Assembly: GCA_963732855.1 (NCBI GenBank)
Contig: CAVTBB010000003.1
Span: 7,019 to 71,018, forward strand
DNA from: an uncultured Methanomassiliicoccales archaeon
Lineage (GTDB): Archaea > Thermoplasmatota > Thermoplasmata > Methanomassiliicoccales > UBA472
Direction: 5' to 3'
DNA length: 64,000 nt
The translations under genes and the position numbers were made by a program. Positions 50,936 to 59,875 of the stretch are shown piece by piece (the first letter of the stretch is position 1; each line of letters begins with the position of its first letter). The notes under the pieces were generated by a model. It did no database searches, was not told the DNA's origin, and saw only the letters and a program-made list of their open reading frames with translations.

Positions 50936-52485
50936 TCACAAGGTCTTAACACAGGCCAGACTTTCTCTCTTCGGCAGGGTGAAGAAGAATGTAGCCCCTT
51001 TGCCGGGTTCCGATTCGAACCATATCTTGCCGCCATGCCGTTCTACTATCTTCTTGCAGATCGCAAGCCCCATTCCGTTCCCCGGATATTCCTCGCGAGT
51101 ATGCAATCTCTTGAATATCTGGAATATCCGTTCGGAGTGTTCAGGGGGATTCCTATTCCGTTGTCCCGCACAGAGATCGTCCAATCCTTTCCTACAGCCT
51201 GAGCGGACAGATGCACCACGGGTGTATGCCCATTTTGGAACTTCAATGCGTTGGAGATCAGATTCTGGAACAACTGGCCTATCTGCCTCCGATCGCCGAT
51301 CACCTGAGGCAGCGGGTCATGGGTCAGGTTCGTGCCGGTGTCATTGATGTAGACCTCAAGATTCGTGGTCACGATTTCTAGCTCTTCTTCCAGATCGACC
51401 GTTTCAGGGGGGGATGTGCTGCGGTCGATACGGGAGTACATCAGTAGTCCGTCGACCATATCATTCATCCTCCTGGCACCATCGACGGCATATCCGATGT
51501 ATTCGGTCGCTTCATCGTCTAACTTATCCCTGTATCTCTTTTCCAATAACAGAAGGTAGTTTGAGACCATGCGCAACGGTTCCTTCAGGTCGTGGGAGGC
51601 GATGTAGGTGAACTGCTCCAGTTCACGGTTAGATGTAGAAAGTTCCTTGGCGTTCTTCTCAATCTCCACCTCGGTGAACCGCTTCTCAACTATCAAGCCT
51701 ATCATCTTGGCCGAAGCCCTCATGTGACTTTTGGCCGCCTCCACCACGAAAGGCGCCCTGGAAATGTAGCTTTGAGCCGCTTTCATAAGCTCTTCCCCAT
51801 CTAGATGGTGCTGGTGGGCGATCTGCAACAGGATCGTCCGATCTTGCGGCGGATCCCCATATCCTATGTTGATGGAACCGATGATCTTACCTCTGGCCAT
51901 GATGGGAACAGCGTAGATGCGAAGCCCACCCGGACATGGCCGGTCCACCGGTCCTTCGGCCTCCTCGATGAGCTGGGTCGATCCACTCCAGCTACGATGA
52001 TGACATAGGAATTCCCCCACTTCCATGTCATTTCCTTCATCATCATTCCTAAAATTATGGTCCATATATCGGCACCAGTTTGATGTAAAGATGCCCATGG
52101 CGCATGTGCCATCATATTCATAGACCGCTGCAGAAGTACCCAGAAGGCTCAATGCATCAAGAATGGTCTCTTCCAGAACAACATTACCGACCGCTTCCAA
52201 GATCAGGTGCCGCTTATTATCTTCCCCGCCCAGGGCCCGGGCCTTCCCTTCTGCGGCCTTCCTACCCTCAAGCTCGCGAGAGGAGTCCGCTGACCTAAGT
52301 TCATTCCGGCACGCACCAATCTGAATTGGATCTTGCTTATCCCCGATCTTCGCCAGACAAGAAGTTACAATATGATGTCCCATGATTCTCTCTCCGACCT
52401 CAAGGTCCCATCGAGTCGCAGTGACCATGATCTGATTTCTATGAAGTATGAAAGAAGGTGATATTTCCTCTTTCCTGGGGCTCAA
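50936..52485 (-). pseudogene. sensor histidine kinase (Cys-containing PocR-like sensor, HisKA, HATPase_c) with a single-base frame shift in the ATPase domain
   Basis: The HisKA motif is FTYIASHDLKEPLR. The HATPase N-box region ends in [11 protein letters not shown] in one frame. [58 protein letters not shown] is in another frame. The join is at a C5 run (plus-strand GGGGG, 51144-51148) and the span is 1550 nt, which is 3n+2. Confidence 0.85.
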
Positions 52486-53417: not shown

Positions 53418-53807
53418 TTACTTCACAACGTCGACGAACACGTCATCACCTTCAACGATAACTGGAAAGGACCTCACATCCATCGTCTTGACTTTATCGA
53501 TCAGCTTACTTAGGTAGCCGGGGACGGCCGATGGACCATCGATCTTAGGGGGTGAACGAATGCGAGGCATGGCAGCATTGATCGCTTCCCCTGTAATCAC
53601 GGAGAACTGGGCACTGTGCATGGGGCAGGTCAGGATGTACTTGTTTAGGGTTCCGAGCTCCAAAGGAGCGCTCATGTGCCCGCAGCGCCTTTCCAATGCG
53701 AAGAATGTACCTTGGTAATTGCATAACACCATTTCAATCCCTTGCGCCTGGACCATCATGAGACCCCCAGGCATGATATCGCCCACCGATGCCACCTTGA
53801 TCTTCAT
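53418..53807 (-). CDS. Rieske-type [2Fe-2S] domain protein
   Basis: The 129-aa product has CGHMS...CPMHSAQF (CxH...CxxH). Its ATG shares one nucleotide with the upstream stop (TAATG). Confidence 0.8.
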   Translation of the reverse strand: MKIKVASVGDIMPGGLMMVQAQGIEMVLCNYQGTFFALERRCGHMSAPLELGTLNKYILTCPMHSAQFSVITGEAINAAMPRIRSPPKIDGPSAVPGYLSKLIDKVKTMDVRSFPVIVEGDDVFVDVVK

Positions 53808-54145
53808 TATTTAGCCCCCTCGATCTCTTCCAATGGGATCTGGCGGAGCTTGCTGGGGTCTTCGACATCCTTATGAACGAATAGCCCGCACCAGCAACGT
53901 TTCATGGCATCGAAATGCGCCTTGTGATGAGGTATACAGGGGCAAACGATCATCATGTCCCTCTTTCGGTCGCGGGTACGGCCCTGGCAAGGACAGTATG
54001 GGATCCCGGTTTGATGCATTAGCATCACCTCGGCGTCAAGCAGATCTGAGACCAGCTCATTGTCCGGTGTGAACTTATAGCCCAAAATGTCAACAACGGG
54101 ACCGAACTGGTCCTGAAGCGCCTTTTTCCTCAGTTCATCATTCAT
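53807..54145 (-). CDS. ferredoxin-thioredoxin reductase catalytic-subunit-like protein (FTRc/FDR family) with CWC variant
   Basis: The motifs YCPCQG, VCPCIP and RCWCGLF correspond to the CPC...CPC...CHC pattern of FTR catalytic subunits. I prefer the ATG at 54145 (MNDELRKK). Confidence 0.75.
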   Translation of the reverse strand: MNDELRKKALQDQFGPVVDILGYKFTPDNELVSDLLDAEVMLMHQTGIPYCPCQGRTRDRKRDMMIVCPCIPHHKAHFDAMKRCWCGLFVHKDVEDPSKLRQIPLEEIEGAK

Positions 54146-54150
54146 CTCAG

Positions 54151-54408
54151 TCACTTGTTCTTTTTCAGAAGCTCTTCGTACCGTTCCGGATTCCATCCGA
54201 TGACCACTGTCCCGTCAATGACCACATAGGGGAATGCGATCCCTCCTTTGCTGTACTTTCCCATCTCCTCCTCGATCCGATCCTGTCCAGCCTCATCTTG
54301 CAGATCGTAATCAACGAACTCGAATTCGATCCCGTGCTCCTTGAAGAACTTCTTGGTCTTTTTGCACCAAGGACAGTAGCTCAGCGTATACCCTGTGACC
54401 TTGTGCAT
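54151..54408 (-). CDS. glutaredoxin/NrdH-like small redox protein
   Basis: The active site is YCPWCKKTKKFF (CPWC) in a thioredoxin-fold-sized product. I prefer the ATG at 54408. Confidence 0.78.
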   Translation of the reverse strand: MHKVTGYTLSYCPWCKKTKKFFKEHGIEFEFVDYDLQDEAGQDRIEEEMGKYSKGGIAFPYVVIDGTVVIGWNPERYEELLKKNK

Positions 54409-54410
54409 AT

Positions 54411-54755
54411 TCAATCTCCCCTGACCTTGATCGCTATCTTTCCAGAATCTATCTTCCATTCGTAGGACTTCAGGACTATTCCAGTGTCCTCGGGCCACAT
54501 CCTGCCTGTCCTGATGTCGAACTGCCAGTCATGACATGGACATTTCAGGATGTATCCGTCCATGGACCCTCCACCGAGGGTGCAGCCCATGTGCGGACAG
54601 ATGTTGGAAAGAGCGAATATCTGCCCGTGACGTTTCATCAAAAGAACGGGCAGACCTTTTGGGGCAACGCAAGCTCCCCCATTCTCGTCCAGCACCTTCT
54701 CCTCCAGTACCGAGACCCATTCATCCATGACCATGAGCACACCGTTGTATTCCAT
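54411..54755 (-). CDS. Rieske-type [2Fe-2S] domain protein
   Basis: The 114-aa product has CPHMGCTL...CPCHDWQF (CxH...CxxH). Confidence 0.82.
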   Translation of the reverse strand: MEYNGVLMVMDEWVSVLEEKVLDENGGACVAPKGLPVLLMKRHGQIFALSNICPHMGCTLGGGSMDGYILKCPCHDWQFDIRTGRMWPEDTGIVLKSYEWKIDSGKIAIKVRGD

Positions 54756-54980
54756 TCCAGCAAAGAATCAATGTCAACCTCCGCTATAATATTCTATCAT
54801 GTTCACACTAAATGCGGACAAGAAATAGGTCCTCTTCCTCGGTCGAGCCATTGTGACCGACCGATGATATACCCGCTTGAAATTAAGACCGGCCTTGTTC
54901 CGTCCTAGAGTTGCTCCATGGCTCATTGTCAGTTCTAAAAACAGCACCCTGGAGGTCTATCCATATACGAAGATTACCGA

Positions 54981-57612: not shown

Positions 57613-57937
57613 TTCTGTACACTCCACCCGAACTGATCCGTTCAAGGCAACTGTTACTACAACTGAAAAAGCAGTTGAGCTTTCGCATTGGAAAGGGTGG
57701 AAAAGGTGAAAAGGCCCATATACTGGCCGGACAAAACCAGAAAACATCCTAAAATCTATCATCACCCTTGCCTCATTTTATGTGCTCCCGAGGGATGACC
57801 ACTATCTTCCCAAATTCGGGTGTGAACGAGGATGTCGAAGCTCGTGGAACGCAATACAGCTTCGATAGCAAATCAATATAAAGTGCGGGGTACGTTGAAA
57901 ACGCATCGGTTATTCAGTGAATACTGGTGGAATTAAA

Positions 57938-59875
57938 ATGGACAACGACCTGCCTGAGATTATTAACGTAGAGTGCCTGAGAGTCCCGGTCAAGAAGTTC
58001 AAACCCGACGAGATCGAGGAAAAGGTCAAGGAGCGGGCATTGGACAAATCGACGCAGGATGTCCTGAGAAAGACGATGAAGGAGGGCACCGACACCGTCT
58101 GGGACAGATTCGAAAGGCAGCAGCCGCAATGCAAGTTCTGTACTGAAGGGATATCCTGTCAGAGATGCGCCATGGGGCCATGCCGGCTGATGGGCGGAGA
58201 TCGCACTAGGGGCGTGTGCGGAGCCGATGCCGATCTGATGGTGGCAAGGAACCTGCTCGATACCATTGCGACAGGCGCGGCCTCCCATTCAGACCATGGA
58301 CGGGAAGTGGTGGAGACATTGCTGAAGACGGCCAGGGGGAAAGCCCCTGGATATGTCGTCAAGGATGAGGAAAAACTAAAGCTGTTGGCAGCTGAGTATG
58401 GCCTGCCTGCAGACGATTCCATTAACCAGATGGCGGAGAAGCTGGCTTTGGCAATGCTCGATGAGTTCGGTACGATCAAGGGGGAAATGCAGATGCCAAA
58501 GAGGGCTCCGGAGGCCTGTGTGGAGCTTTGGAAGGCTATCGGGATTCTGCCAAGGAGCATAGACAGAGAGATCGTGGAGGCGATGCACCGAGTGCACATG
58601 GGAGTAGGGGCGGACTACTCGGGTTTCTTGATGCAGGGCATGAGGGCCTCGATGGGAGACGGTTGGGGCGGTTCGATGATGGGAACGGAGATATCCGACG
58701 TACTGTTCGGCACTCCGACGATCAAGAGTTCCAAGGTCAATCTAGGCGTGCTCAAGCCTGATCAAGTGAACGTGTCCCTTCACGGTCACAATCCAGTGCT
58801 TTCCGAGATGATAGTCAGGGTCGCGAGCATGCCGGAAATGATCGCCCGAGCGAAAAACGTGGGGGCTAATGGCATCAACCTGGTCGGACTGTGCTGTACG
58901 GGCAACGAACTACTGATGCGTAAGGGGATACCTCAGGCCGGGAATCACCTGGACCAGGAACTGGTCATCACCACGGGGGCGCTCGAGGCCATGGTCGTCG
59001 ATTATCAATGCATATTCCCAACCCTGGCGAACACGTCCTCCTGCTACCACACAATGCTGTTCACGACCTCTCCTAAGGCGGTCATTCAGGGCAGCTACTA
59101 TGTTGAGATCACTCCCGAGAATGCGTTCGAGCAGTCGAAGAAGATCATTGGTGCCGCCATCGACAACTATCCTAACCGGGTAAAGGAAAGGATGCTCATA
59201 CCGGATGCACCAGTCGATGCCATGGTGGGCTTCTCCGTCGAATCGATAAGGAAGGCATTGGGTGGAAGCCTGAAGCCATTGCTGGACGTGGTGGTATCGG
59301 GAAAGATCCGAGGGTGCGTTGGGATCGTCGGCTGCAATAACCCACGGATCAAGCACGACTATGGCCATGTGACGCTGGCCAAGGAACTCATCAAGCGCGA
59401 CATTCTGTGCGTTGAGACGGGATGCTCGTCCATCGCGTGCGCCAAGGCCGGGTTGCTACAGCCGAGCTCGATAGACCAGGCGGGAAAGGGCCTGCAAGAG
59501 GTCTGCGGTTCCCTAGGCATACCGCCAGTCCTGCACATGGGTTCGTGCGTGGACAACAGCCGAATACTGGCATTGGTTGCTGAACTGGCCAGAACGGCAG
59601 GGGTGAGGATCGACCAATTGCCCGTGGCGGGTGCAGCTCCTGAATGGTATTCGCCAAAGGCGGTGGCGATCGGCAGCTATTTCGTCGGCAGCGGGGTAAG
59701 CGTGTGTCTAGGCGTGATGCCACACATAGGCGGAAGCCAGAACGTGATCAAGACACTGACCGACGACCTTGACGATCTGGTTCATGCTAAGTTCTGGGTA
59801 GAGCCGAACCCAAAGAGCGCAGCCGCCCTCCTGTCCGATCACATCGAAATTAAGAGGAAAGCGCTGGGGATGTGA
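57938..59875 (+). CDS. cooS: anaerobic Ni,Fe carbon monoxide dehydrogenase catalytic subunit
   Basis: The C-cluster ligand contexts are present: HGHNP, GLCCTGNE, DYQCIF, VGCNNP, ETGCSS and HMGSCVDNSR. The N-terminal motif is CKFCTEGISCQRCAMGPCR. The ATG at 57938 is preceded by GGTGG. Confidence 0.92.
   Translation: MDNDLPEIINVECLRVPVKKFKPDEIEEKVKERALDKSTQDVLRKTMKEGTDTVWDRFERQQPQCKFCTEGISCQRCAMGPCRLMGGDRTRGVCGADADLMVARNLLDTIATGAASHSDHGREVVETLLKTARGKAPGYVVKDEEKLKLLAAEYGLPADDSINQMAEKLALAMLDEFGTIKGEMQMPKRAPEACVELWKAIGILPRSIDREIVEAMHRVHMGVGADYSGFLMQGMRASMGDGWGGSMMGTEISDVLFGTPTIKSSKVNLGVLKPDQVNVSLHGHNPVLSEMIVRVASMPEMIARAKNVGANGINLVGLCCTGNELLMRKGIPQAGNHLDQELVITTGALEAMVVDYQCIFPTLANTSSCYHTMLFTTSPKAVIQGSYYVEITPENAFEQSKKIIGAAIDNYPNRVKERMLIPDAPVDAMVGFSVESIRKALGGSLKPLLDVVVSGKIRGCVGIVGCNNPRIKHDYGHVTLAKELIKRDILCVETGCSSIACAKAGLLQPSSIDQAGKGLQEVCGSLGIPPVLHMGSCVDNSRILALVAELARTAGVRIDQLPVAGAAPEWYSPKAVAIGSYFVGSGVSVCLGVMPHIGGSQNVIKTLTDDLDDLVHAKFWVEPNPKSAAALLSDHIEIKRKALGM

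Follow-up and report, generated by a model that had tools for sequence, protein, structure and literature searches.

What do two different Rieske proteins do on either side of a glutaredoxin-like (Grx-like) redoxin and a relative of ferredoxin:thioredoxin reductase (FTR)? The question is raised by four genes on the minus strand of a 64,000-nucleotide (nt) stretch of DNA from an uncultured Methanomassiliicoccales archaeon, the whole of which is called the window here. Reading the minus strand together with the listing of open reading frames (ORFs), I find the order Rieske A, Grx-like, FTR-like and Rieske B between positions 53418 and 54755. An earlier note on this DNA had described the four genes with gaps of 2 nt and 5 nt and a 1-nt overlap, and was right to the base: the first gap, between Rieske A and Grx-like, is 54410-54409, the second, between Grx-like and FTR-like, is 54150-54146 ('ctgag'), and the FTR-like and Rieske B genes overlap by A53807, which is shared by TAA and ATG (TAATG). 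In this study I show that these genes recur together in Bacteria and Archaea. The parts are familiar and the partnership appears to be new, and I infer an apparently never characterised FTR-like disulfide reductase system with Rieske partners. The four genes and the block ahead of them are:

54411..54755, minus strand: Rieske A, 114 amino acids from ATG 54755; PF00355, 3e-16; CPHMGC...CPCHDW
54151..54408, minus strand: Grx-like redoxin, 85 amino acids; PF00462, 2e-13; active site CPWC
53807..54145, minus strand: FTR/FDR-like protein (FDR, ferredoxin:disulfide reductase), 112 amino acids; PF02943, 5e-22; CPC-x14-CPC-x13-CWC
53418..53807, minus strand: Rieske B, 129 amino acids; PF00355, 8e-14, and Rieske_4, 1.5e-8; CGH...CPMH
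54771..54791, minus strand: candidate archaeal promoter TATTATA plus GTTGACAT, a conserved upstream block

All four domains are confirmed by Pfam, and none of the four proteins reaches a curated NCBIfam equivalog. A scan of one genome per species returned 286 genomes with a relative of the FTR-like protein that has CWC as its third motif, and the loci of the best 80 were fetched. The order Rieske A - Grx - FTR - Rieske B is observed on one strand in about 70 of these best 80, so that the synteny on which the earlier note had made its proposal depend is conserved. The cassette spans roughly 20 bacterial and archaeal lineages: Elusimicrobiota (24 loci), Actinomycetota and Thermoleophilia (15), Bathyarchaeia (7), Methanomassiliicoccales (5) and Methanoperedens (4), together with Nitrospirota, Acidobacteriota, Deltaproteobacteria, Prolixibacteraceae, Methanocellaceae, Fibrobacterota, Chitinivibrionales, Thermodesulfobacteriota and Promethearchaeota. 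Ca. Ferrigenium straubiae KS, whose genome is complete, and Methanocella sp. CWC-04 have it as well. The remaining loci of the best 80 are either cut by contig ends or show a three-gene form without Rieske B, found in Chloroflexota/Anaerolineae.

The packing is as tight elsewhere as in the window, with median intergenic distances of 1, -2.5 and 1 nt in the 72 complete loci and distances of 15 nt or less in at least 90%. In the same 72 loci the four families have correlated matrices of pairwise distances (r = 0.60-0.85), and nearest neighbours in these matrices often cross the divide between Bacteria and Archaea. Wherever a cassette locus is not cut by a contig end, the FTR-like gene stands next to the Grx-like one, and the genes flanking the cassette vary between lineages. 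Because of these synteny statistics, a chance adjacency of the four genes is rejected. The comparisons indicate that the cassette is inherited as a unit and is also passed between Bacteria and Archaea in one piece; this transfer marks it as a self-sufficient functional cassette.

The FTR-like protein matches PF02943 (FeThRed_B) with 78.4 bits (cut-off 22; E = 4.8e-22) over profile positions 10-105 of 106, and this is the sole Pfam domain in its 112 residues. Its best solved relatives are the FDR of Methanosarcina acetivorans (4tpu, 6e-7), 7pwe (1e-5) and Synechocystis FTRc (1e-4). In the HMMER alignment CPC/CPC/CWC falls onto CPC/CPC/CYC of 4tpu and 7pwe and onto CPC/CPC/CHC of 2puk (Synechocystis FTRc); the cysteines of CWC align with those of the catalytic CHC, as the proposal in the earlier note requires. 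Compared with FTRc, the FTR-like protein has a spacer ahead of the third motif that is five residues longer and holds the invariant H74 and H77. The exact pattern CPC-x14-CPC-x13-CWC is found in all 120 closest database homologues (59-89% identical), and among 25 aligned sequences the six cysteines (C51, C53, C68, C70, C84 and C86) are invariant, as are W85, H74 and H77. By its alignment with FTR and FDR, the protein presumably has a [4Fe-4S]-plus-disulfide active site, with the disulfide between Cys53 and Cys86. The AlphaFold2 (AF2) model has a pLDDT of 76.6, and its sole fold matches in the PDB are the two chains of 7pwe.

The earlier note had also called CHC canonical and CWC unusual. Tryptophan does replace the histidine of FTRc; however, histidine is not what the family usually has. 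With 394 clusters at 50% identity in 1.84 billion representatives, the FTR-like superfamily as a whole is small, and in the best 150 of these clusters the third motif reads CYC about 29 times, CWC about 29, CHC about 21, CFC 19, CLC 6 and CKC 4. A unique substitution is therefore rejected, as the third-motif residue varies widely across the family. Since tyrosine, tryptophan, phenylalanine and histidine occur there in comparable numbers, CWC is the hallmark of one subgroup. One further protein of the superfamily (P0308) is a fusion of thioredoxin to an FTR-like domain with CFC. Besides, a second, distant FTR-like gene (28-33 bits against the FTR-like protein of the window) lies some 0.5-1 kb downstream of the cassette in a Methanoperedens locus (L090, 5214-5708) and on a metagenome contig (L121, 4663-5163).

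The Grx-like redoxin scores 50.9 bits against PF00462 (cut-off 22.9) and has a thioredoxin-fold domain with a CxxC motif, CPWC. Its closest NCBIfam families are YruB (54.2 bits, cut-off 88.55) and NrdH (35.9, cut-off 85.75), both below cut-off, as is Grx3 (38, cut-off 90), and among solved structures it is closest to the Grx-like proteins 5cax, 3nzn and 3ic4 from Methanosarcina and Archaeoglobus. C[PL]WC is present in all 77 Grx-like orthologues. Pfam, NCBIfam and the solved relatives thus agree with the earlier description of the central pair as an FTR/FDR-like protein with a Grx/NrdH-like one, in which the Grx-like protein is the presumed disulfide substrate and output carrier.

Both flanking proteins score above the PF00355 cut-off, their CxH...CxxH ligands are invariant in the orthologue alignments, and the ligand spacing is 16 in every sequence scored (76 of 76 for Rieske A, 75 of 75 for Rieske B). 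Their loops are distinct. Rieske A has the motif CxH[ML][GA]C...C[PSA]CH[DE]W, in which the ligands C53, H55, C72 and H75, an extra cysteine pair (C58/C74) and W77 are invariant among 29 aligned orthologues. Both extra cysteines are present in 77 Rieske A orthologues from genomes and in 156 family cores with a readable motif; in a few of the 77 the Asp/Glu ahead of the Trp is replaced. In a three-gene cassette from Anaerolineae (L019, 3361-3735), the only such case among the 77, CPCYDW stands for CPCHDW and the fourth ligand has changed from histidine to tyrosine. C58 and C74 match, residue for residue, the second cysteines of CSHLGC...CPCH in QcrA of actinobacterial bc1, so that the pair aligns with the disulfide-forming cysteines of the bc1 type; dioxygenase ferredoxins, when aligned with Rieske A, lack it. 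Rieske A does not have the Ser/Tyr hydrogen-bond donors of high-potential centres (CPCHDWxF vs CPCHGSxY), nor a membrane anchor or export signal, and its AF2 model (pLDDT 87) is a small soluble Rieske-ferredoxin fold, with dioxygenase Rieske ferredoxins as top fold matches (TMq 0.85 to 2qpz). Against the NCBIfam sulredoxin model it scores 46.6 bits (3e-12; cut-off 170).

Rieske B reads CGH...CP[LM]H, with the four ligands invariant in 27 orthologues. Neither extra-cysteine position is conserved in it (a box-I cysteine, CGHMCA, occurs in 2 of 75 orthologues), a stretch of about 25 residues is inserted ahead of the last strands, and its best matches in the PDB are dioxygenase ferredoxins. No Rieske oxygenase was found in the neighbourhood within the window or in related loci, and the scores against NCBIfam equivalogs lie far below their cut-offs. 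As had been proposed, two different Rieske proteins flank the central pair, with the extra cysteines in Rieske A only.

Approaching the cassette from the side of Rieske A, a metagenome scan returned 564 relatives, of which the contexts of the best 80 were examined and 157 sequences were placed in a tree. Of these best 80 loci, 43 have the cassette to the extent that the contig covers it, and about 26 have the context Rieske - DsrE - TusA - SelD-like. In the tree, the 26 Rieske sequences from DsrE/TusA contexts form one pure sister clade, with all cassette copies outside it. Relatives of Rieske B sampled from a profile search stand again in the cassette. By these criteria of motif, tree and context, Rieske A and Rieske B are different types, each dedicated to the cassette. 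The sister clade keeps CxHxxC...CPCH[DE]W and has a second cassette of its own, Rieske - DsrE-like - TusA-like - AIRS/SelD-like (examples, from a subset of L111-L171, are L152 2879-4881, L116 1676-3667 and L120 2983-4710), to which some loci add a divergent gene that looks LysR-like from its sequence, or a MobB or HGD-D gene. Rieske proteins of this disulfide-bearing type seem generally to have cysteine-based relay proteins as partners.

Natural fusions join the same parts. One protein (P0271) is a fusion of a Grx-like and a CWC-type FTR-like domain, both found by Pfam, and a Grx~FTR fusion gene of this kind stands between the genes for Rieske A and Rieske B, in a cassette that directly follows a peroxiredoxin gene. 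Two others (P0275 and P0279), less than 50% identical to each other, carry a CWC-type FTR-like domain fused to a C-terminal Rieske domain. A Grx gene precedes each FTR~Rieske fusion gene, and Rieske A is missing there. Besides the four-gene form, the architectures seen are that of Chloroflexota with three genes and no Rieske B, Grx followed by FTR~Rieske, and Rieske A - Grx~FTR - Rieske B, and the set that is constant across all of them is Grx, FTR and at least one Rieske. Because of the natural FTR~Rieske fusions, it can be concluded that Rieske is functionally coupled to the Grx/FTR pair. The FTR~Rieske fusion loci (L179 390-1067, L180 415-1092, L181 3185-3850) have a Rieske motif CRH...CPWH without extra cysteines, and in L179 the Grx active site is SPYC (monothiol).

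Within the window, the four genes look like one transcription unit, because of their tight packing, the conserved block upstream and the flanks, a radical SAM gene being divergent on one side and a metallo-beta-lactamase fold gene convergent on the other. The upstream block, some 30-50 nt ahead of the Rieske A start, consists of TATTATA (54791-54785) and GTTGACAT (54778-54771), and both elements are kept in five Methanomassiliicoccales loci despite diverged flanking sequence; they are a candidate promoter and possible regulator site. The genomes nearest to the window cassette are metagenome-assembled genomes (MAGs) of Methanomassiliicoccales, at 86-89% identity. Public gene models for the Grx-like protein and Rieske B are identical to my reading, while the one for Rieske A starts fifteen bases later, at GTG 54740 (109 amino acids), than ATG 54755. 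A longer ORF for the FTR-like protein, from ATG 54196, is ruled out as all homologues begin at the MNDELRKKAL position.

Farther out, a UbiA prenyltransferase gene and the radical SAM gene lie between the cassette and a gene for a prismane/hybrid-cluster (or CODH-family) protein of 652 amino acids (57917-59875, plus strand), 3 kb from the cassette, and one related locus (L001) has the same neighbours on this side. A PocR-HisKA-HATPase_c sensor kinase gene (50936-52485, minus strand) is frameshifted near 51180, the end of its ATPase domain continuing in another frame (ORF 50936-51184); the orthologue in locus L016 is intact, with 532 amino acids, and the copy in the window is either a pseudogene or an assembly error. 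A scan of the window found no tRNAs.

No universal fifth gene accompanies the cassette: a clustering of flanking ORFs and a Pfam scan of 69 downstream neighbours gave lineage-limited neighbours only. A Fe/Mn superoxide dismutase (SOD) gene is directly downstream in 13 loci from Actinomycetota/Thermoleophilia (e.g. L043 4831-5424). In L182-184 (L182 2056-2667), the gene of a 2-Cys peroxiredoxin lies directly upstream, 20 nt before Rieske A - Grx~FTR - Rieske B. TGA stands in frame where the peroxidatic residue is expected (FYPADFTFV-TGA-ATE), and the product is presumably a selenocysteine peroxiredoxin, its gene having been split in two by gene callers. A ferritin-like gene is found upstream of the cassette in L013. 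Directly downstream, there is a NADPH-dependent FMN reductase in Nitrospirota and Ferrigenium (L024 4797-5384, L065 4835-5404) and a flavoprotein with Fer2_4 and Pyr_redox_2 domains in Elusimicrobia, and in L038 (4758-5360) Rieske B is followed directly by a SnoaL-like protein with a signal-peptide-like N-terminus. A rhodanese is the next downstream gene in 3 of 69 loci. A link to class III ribonucleotide reductase (RNR), as for FDR/NrdH in M. barkeri, is not supported: no RNR family was found among the flanking clusters that recur or the 25 most frequent Pfam families of downstream neighbours, in a survey that made no specific search for nrdD.

How, then, would these parts work together? The reading that I prefer, and for which I hold the case to be evenly balanced, is a Rieske-fed [4Fe-4S] disulfide reductase that reduces the Grx-like redoxin, the whole being a self-contained soluble chain ending in a dithiol. 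The Rieske carriers would hand over electrons singly to the CWC-type FTR-like protein; the most probable carrier is Rieske B, with Rieske A as a possible second. At the FTR-like [4Fe-4S] cluster, beside the Cys53/Cys86 disulfide, two single electrons would be turned into a dithiol in two one-electron steps; this dithiol would reduce the CPWC Grx-like redoxin, and the redoxin could then reduce clients such as peroxiredoxins. In some lineages, the NAD(P)H flavoproteins encoded next door probably load the Rieske proteins. The system probably serves to repair thiols and to fend off peroxide in anaerobes and microaerophiles that are exposed to oxygen, as the neighbouring genes for SOD (13 loci), selenocysteine peroxiredoxin and a ferritin-like protein point to a role in oxidant defence; the prismane/hybrid-cluster gene 3 kb away in the window belongs to the same context.

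Several observations weigh against this proposal. The Rieske-type ferredoxins that have been characterised have potentials of about -150 mV, and bc1-type Rieske centres lie far higher. As known Rieske potentials are less reducing than those of the ferredoxins that serve FTR and FDR, disulfide reduction may be uphill. A Rieske-fed reductase does not explain why two Rieske types are kept, nor why Rieske A has a cysteine pair beside its cluster. The fused Rieske domains have no clear type, with 57.8 and 56.6 bits against the Rieske A profile vs 54.7 and 41.9 against that of Rieske B. The stress-related neighbours are limited to certain lineages, and the linkage with SOD may reflect a single ancestral arrangement. 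Finally, the AF2 model of the FTR-like protein is of moderate confidence, and its Foldseek E-value is weak (0.02).

The cysteine pair could alternatively make Rieske A a client of the system, with Rieske B feeding the FTR-like and Grx-like proteins, and these reducing or poising C58/C74 as a thiol switch for the potential, stability or maturation of Rieske A, whose own partner would be encoded elsewhere. Only Rieske A has the pair, invariant in the 29 orthologues and matching the disulfide cysteines of the bc1 type, and since its sister clade adjoins DsrE, TusA and SelD-like relay proteins, the pair is suggested to be functional; moreover, the FTR~Rieske lineages lack Rieske A, so that it is not needed for the core reaction. 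However, in the Chloroflexota, which have Rieske A and no Rieske B, Rieske A would need to fill both roles, donor and client, by itself, no conserved downstream partner of Rieske A is found near the cassette, and the homologous disulfide of bc1 is, according to the textbooks, structural and not regulatory; I regard a client role as rather unlikely. Electrons could also run the other way, the FTR-like protein oxidising the Grx-like dithiol and delivering the electrons to a higher-potential Rieske A and a lower-potential Rieske B, with either simple disulfide formation or a thiol-based electron bifurcation as the outcome. The strict co-conservation of two Rieske classes around a converter between two-electron and one-electron chemistry would fit this, as would the disulfide-bearing bc1-type loop, which by alignment and textbook knowledge is typical of higher-potential Rieske centres. 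Yet Rieske A has CPCHDWxF and not CPCHGSxY with its Ser/Tyr donors, the three-gene and fused forms have one Rieske only, no conserved acceptor for the reduced Rieske is found nearby, and cytoplasmic disulfide formation would be of no obvious use to these anaerobes; a reversed or split flow is quite improbable in my view.

A stronger form of such coupling is conceivable, namely a thiol-based device for splitting or merging electrons, in which the Grx dithiol/disulfide is coupled through the FTR-like site to two Rieske centres of different potential, namely Rieske A with its disulfide-bearing bc1-type loops and the ferredoxin-type Rieske B. One electron going downhill would pay for the other going uphill, much as bc1 does at its quinol site, except that a protein disulfide would take the part of the quinone; I consider this highly improbable. 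A milder version would make Rieske A a second catalytic centre of Fe-S cluster plus disulfide, and its sister clade would do likewise for persulfide carriers (DsrE/TusA). The genes that follow this sister clade, for DsrE, TusA and SelD-like AIRS proteins, bring up sulfur or selenium handling as well: the system might reduce persulfides, perselenides or cysteine-borne polysulfide for cofactor or selenophosphate synthesis. A rhodanese is next downstream in the 3 of 69 loci mentioned above, and the nearest NCBIfam models of both central proteins are the selenoprotein families FtrB_double_U and Uxx_star. But the sister clade is phylogenetically separate, no DsrE or TusA occurs inside the cassette itself, the NCBIfam scores are far below their cut-offs, and the rhodanese linkage is rare; I take sulfur or selenium handling for a long shot.

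If the cassette is Rieske-wired as in the preferred reading, it would be a new way to power protein-thiol reduction. Only three groups of FTR-like proteins (1, 4 and 6) have reportedly been characterised, being plant FTR, Methanosarcina FDR and AFTR, and all three reportedly use ferredoxin as electron source. The earlier note was aware of no characterised system of this composition, and my literature search likewise found none; full-text searching gave no description of a Rieske-Grx-FTR cassette, although an earlier bioinformatic mention is possible, as specialist papers on the FTR family were outside the search. Rieske centres are comparatively oxygen-tolerant. A Rieske chain could explain how strict anaerobes and microaerophiles keep their thiols reduced under oxygen, when low-potential ferredoxins fail; Methanomassiliicoccales, Methanocella, Methanoperedens, Bathyarchaeia, Elusimicrobiota and peat Actinomycetota are among the lineages to which this would apply. 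Studies of Fe-S mechanisms can make use of an FTR active site in which tryptophan naturally replaces histidine and two new invariant histidines stand nearby, and of a soluble Rieske protein with a bc1-type cysteine pair. The cassette is within reach of experiment in Methanocella sp. CWC-04, probably a cultured isolate, to judge from its strain-style NCBI name and the lack of a MAG label, and Ca. Ferrigenium straubiae KS, with its complete genome, offers another access.

Among known systems, the two Rieske proteins compare best with the Rieske ferredoxins of dioxygenases (2qpz, 2i7f, 1fqt), which are their best matches in sequence and fold and are likewise small soluble one-electron carriers with CxH-x16-CxxH. 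In contrast to these, Rieske A has the bc1-type cysteine pair and Rieske B the insertion of about 25 residues, and while dioxygenase systems encode their oxygenase alongside, none is found near the cassette. Sulredoxin and the Rieske proteins of bc1/b6f share with Rieske A the CxHxGC...CPCH loops and both disulfide cysteines, and sulredoxin is, like Rieske A, a soluble Rieske protein, and an archaeal one. However, Rieske A differs from this group in its score far below the sulredoxin cut-off, its lack of an anchor or export signal and its CPCHDWxF.

Plant-type FTR shares PF02943 and six aligned cysteines with the FTR-like protein, four of them cluster ligands and two forming the active-site disulfide. 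It has CHC, whereas the FTR-like protein has Trp85, conserved as tryptophan in 120 of the 120 closest homologues. Plant-type FTR partners thioredoxin and takes electrons from a plant-type ferredoxin, whereas the cassette has a Grx-like protein and a presumed Rieske donor. Plant-type FTR also has a variable subunit, FTRv, reportedly confined to phototrophs that are oxygenic (PMC9025218); no FTRv gene was found in the cassette, to which the search was limited. The FTR-like protein thus belongs to the FTR-like family and is not a plant-type FTR. The Grx/FDR fusion of Desulfotalea psychrophila (7pwe) is the second-best sequence match and the sole fold match of the FTR-like protein, and it shows Grx and FDR domains acting together in a single protein, comparable to the CWC-type fusion P0271. 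It has CYC and is fused, in contrast to the CWC and the separate genes of the cassette. It is not known to have a Rieske partner.

The best solved match remains the Methanosarcina FDR (4tpu), which is, like the FTR-like protein, a single subunit with three CxC motifs and an aromatic residue other than histidine in the third. Its motif spacing is x14/x12 compared with x14/x13, and its third motif CYC compared with CWC. It is paired with a small Grx-like redoxin; in the cassette, a Grx-like gene always adjoins that of the FTR-like protein (and is fused to it in P0271), and its product, the presumed partner, has its closest similarity to 5cax and 3nzn of Methanosarcina. FDR takes its electrons from a 2x[4Fe-4S] ferredoxin, and is said to reduce a Grx-like methanoredoxin and a NrdH-like protein. 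However, 4tpu has 173 amino acids, carries the molecule name 'Rubredoxin' and consists of an FTR-like part (15-94) with a fused C-terminal rubredoxin domain, whereas the FTR-like protein, with 112 amino acids, has no rubredoxin domain and its pair is flanked by two separate Rieske genes instead; it is not a Methanosarcina-type FDR. In 4tpu the extra residues follow the FTR-like domain on its C-terminal side, which is also where the FTR~Rieske fusions carry their Rieske domain. In the proposed chain, Rieske would stand in both for the plant-type ferredoxin of FTR and for the fused rubredoxin domain of the Methanosarcina FDR.

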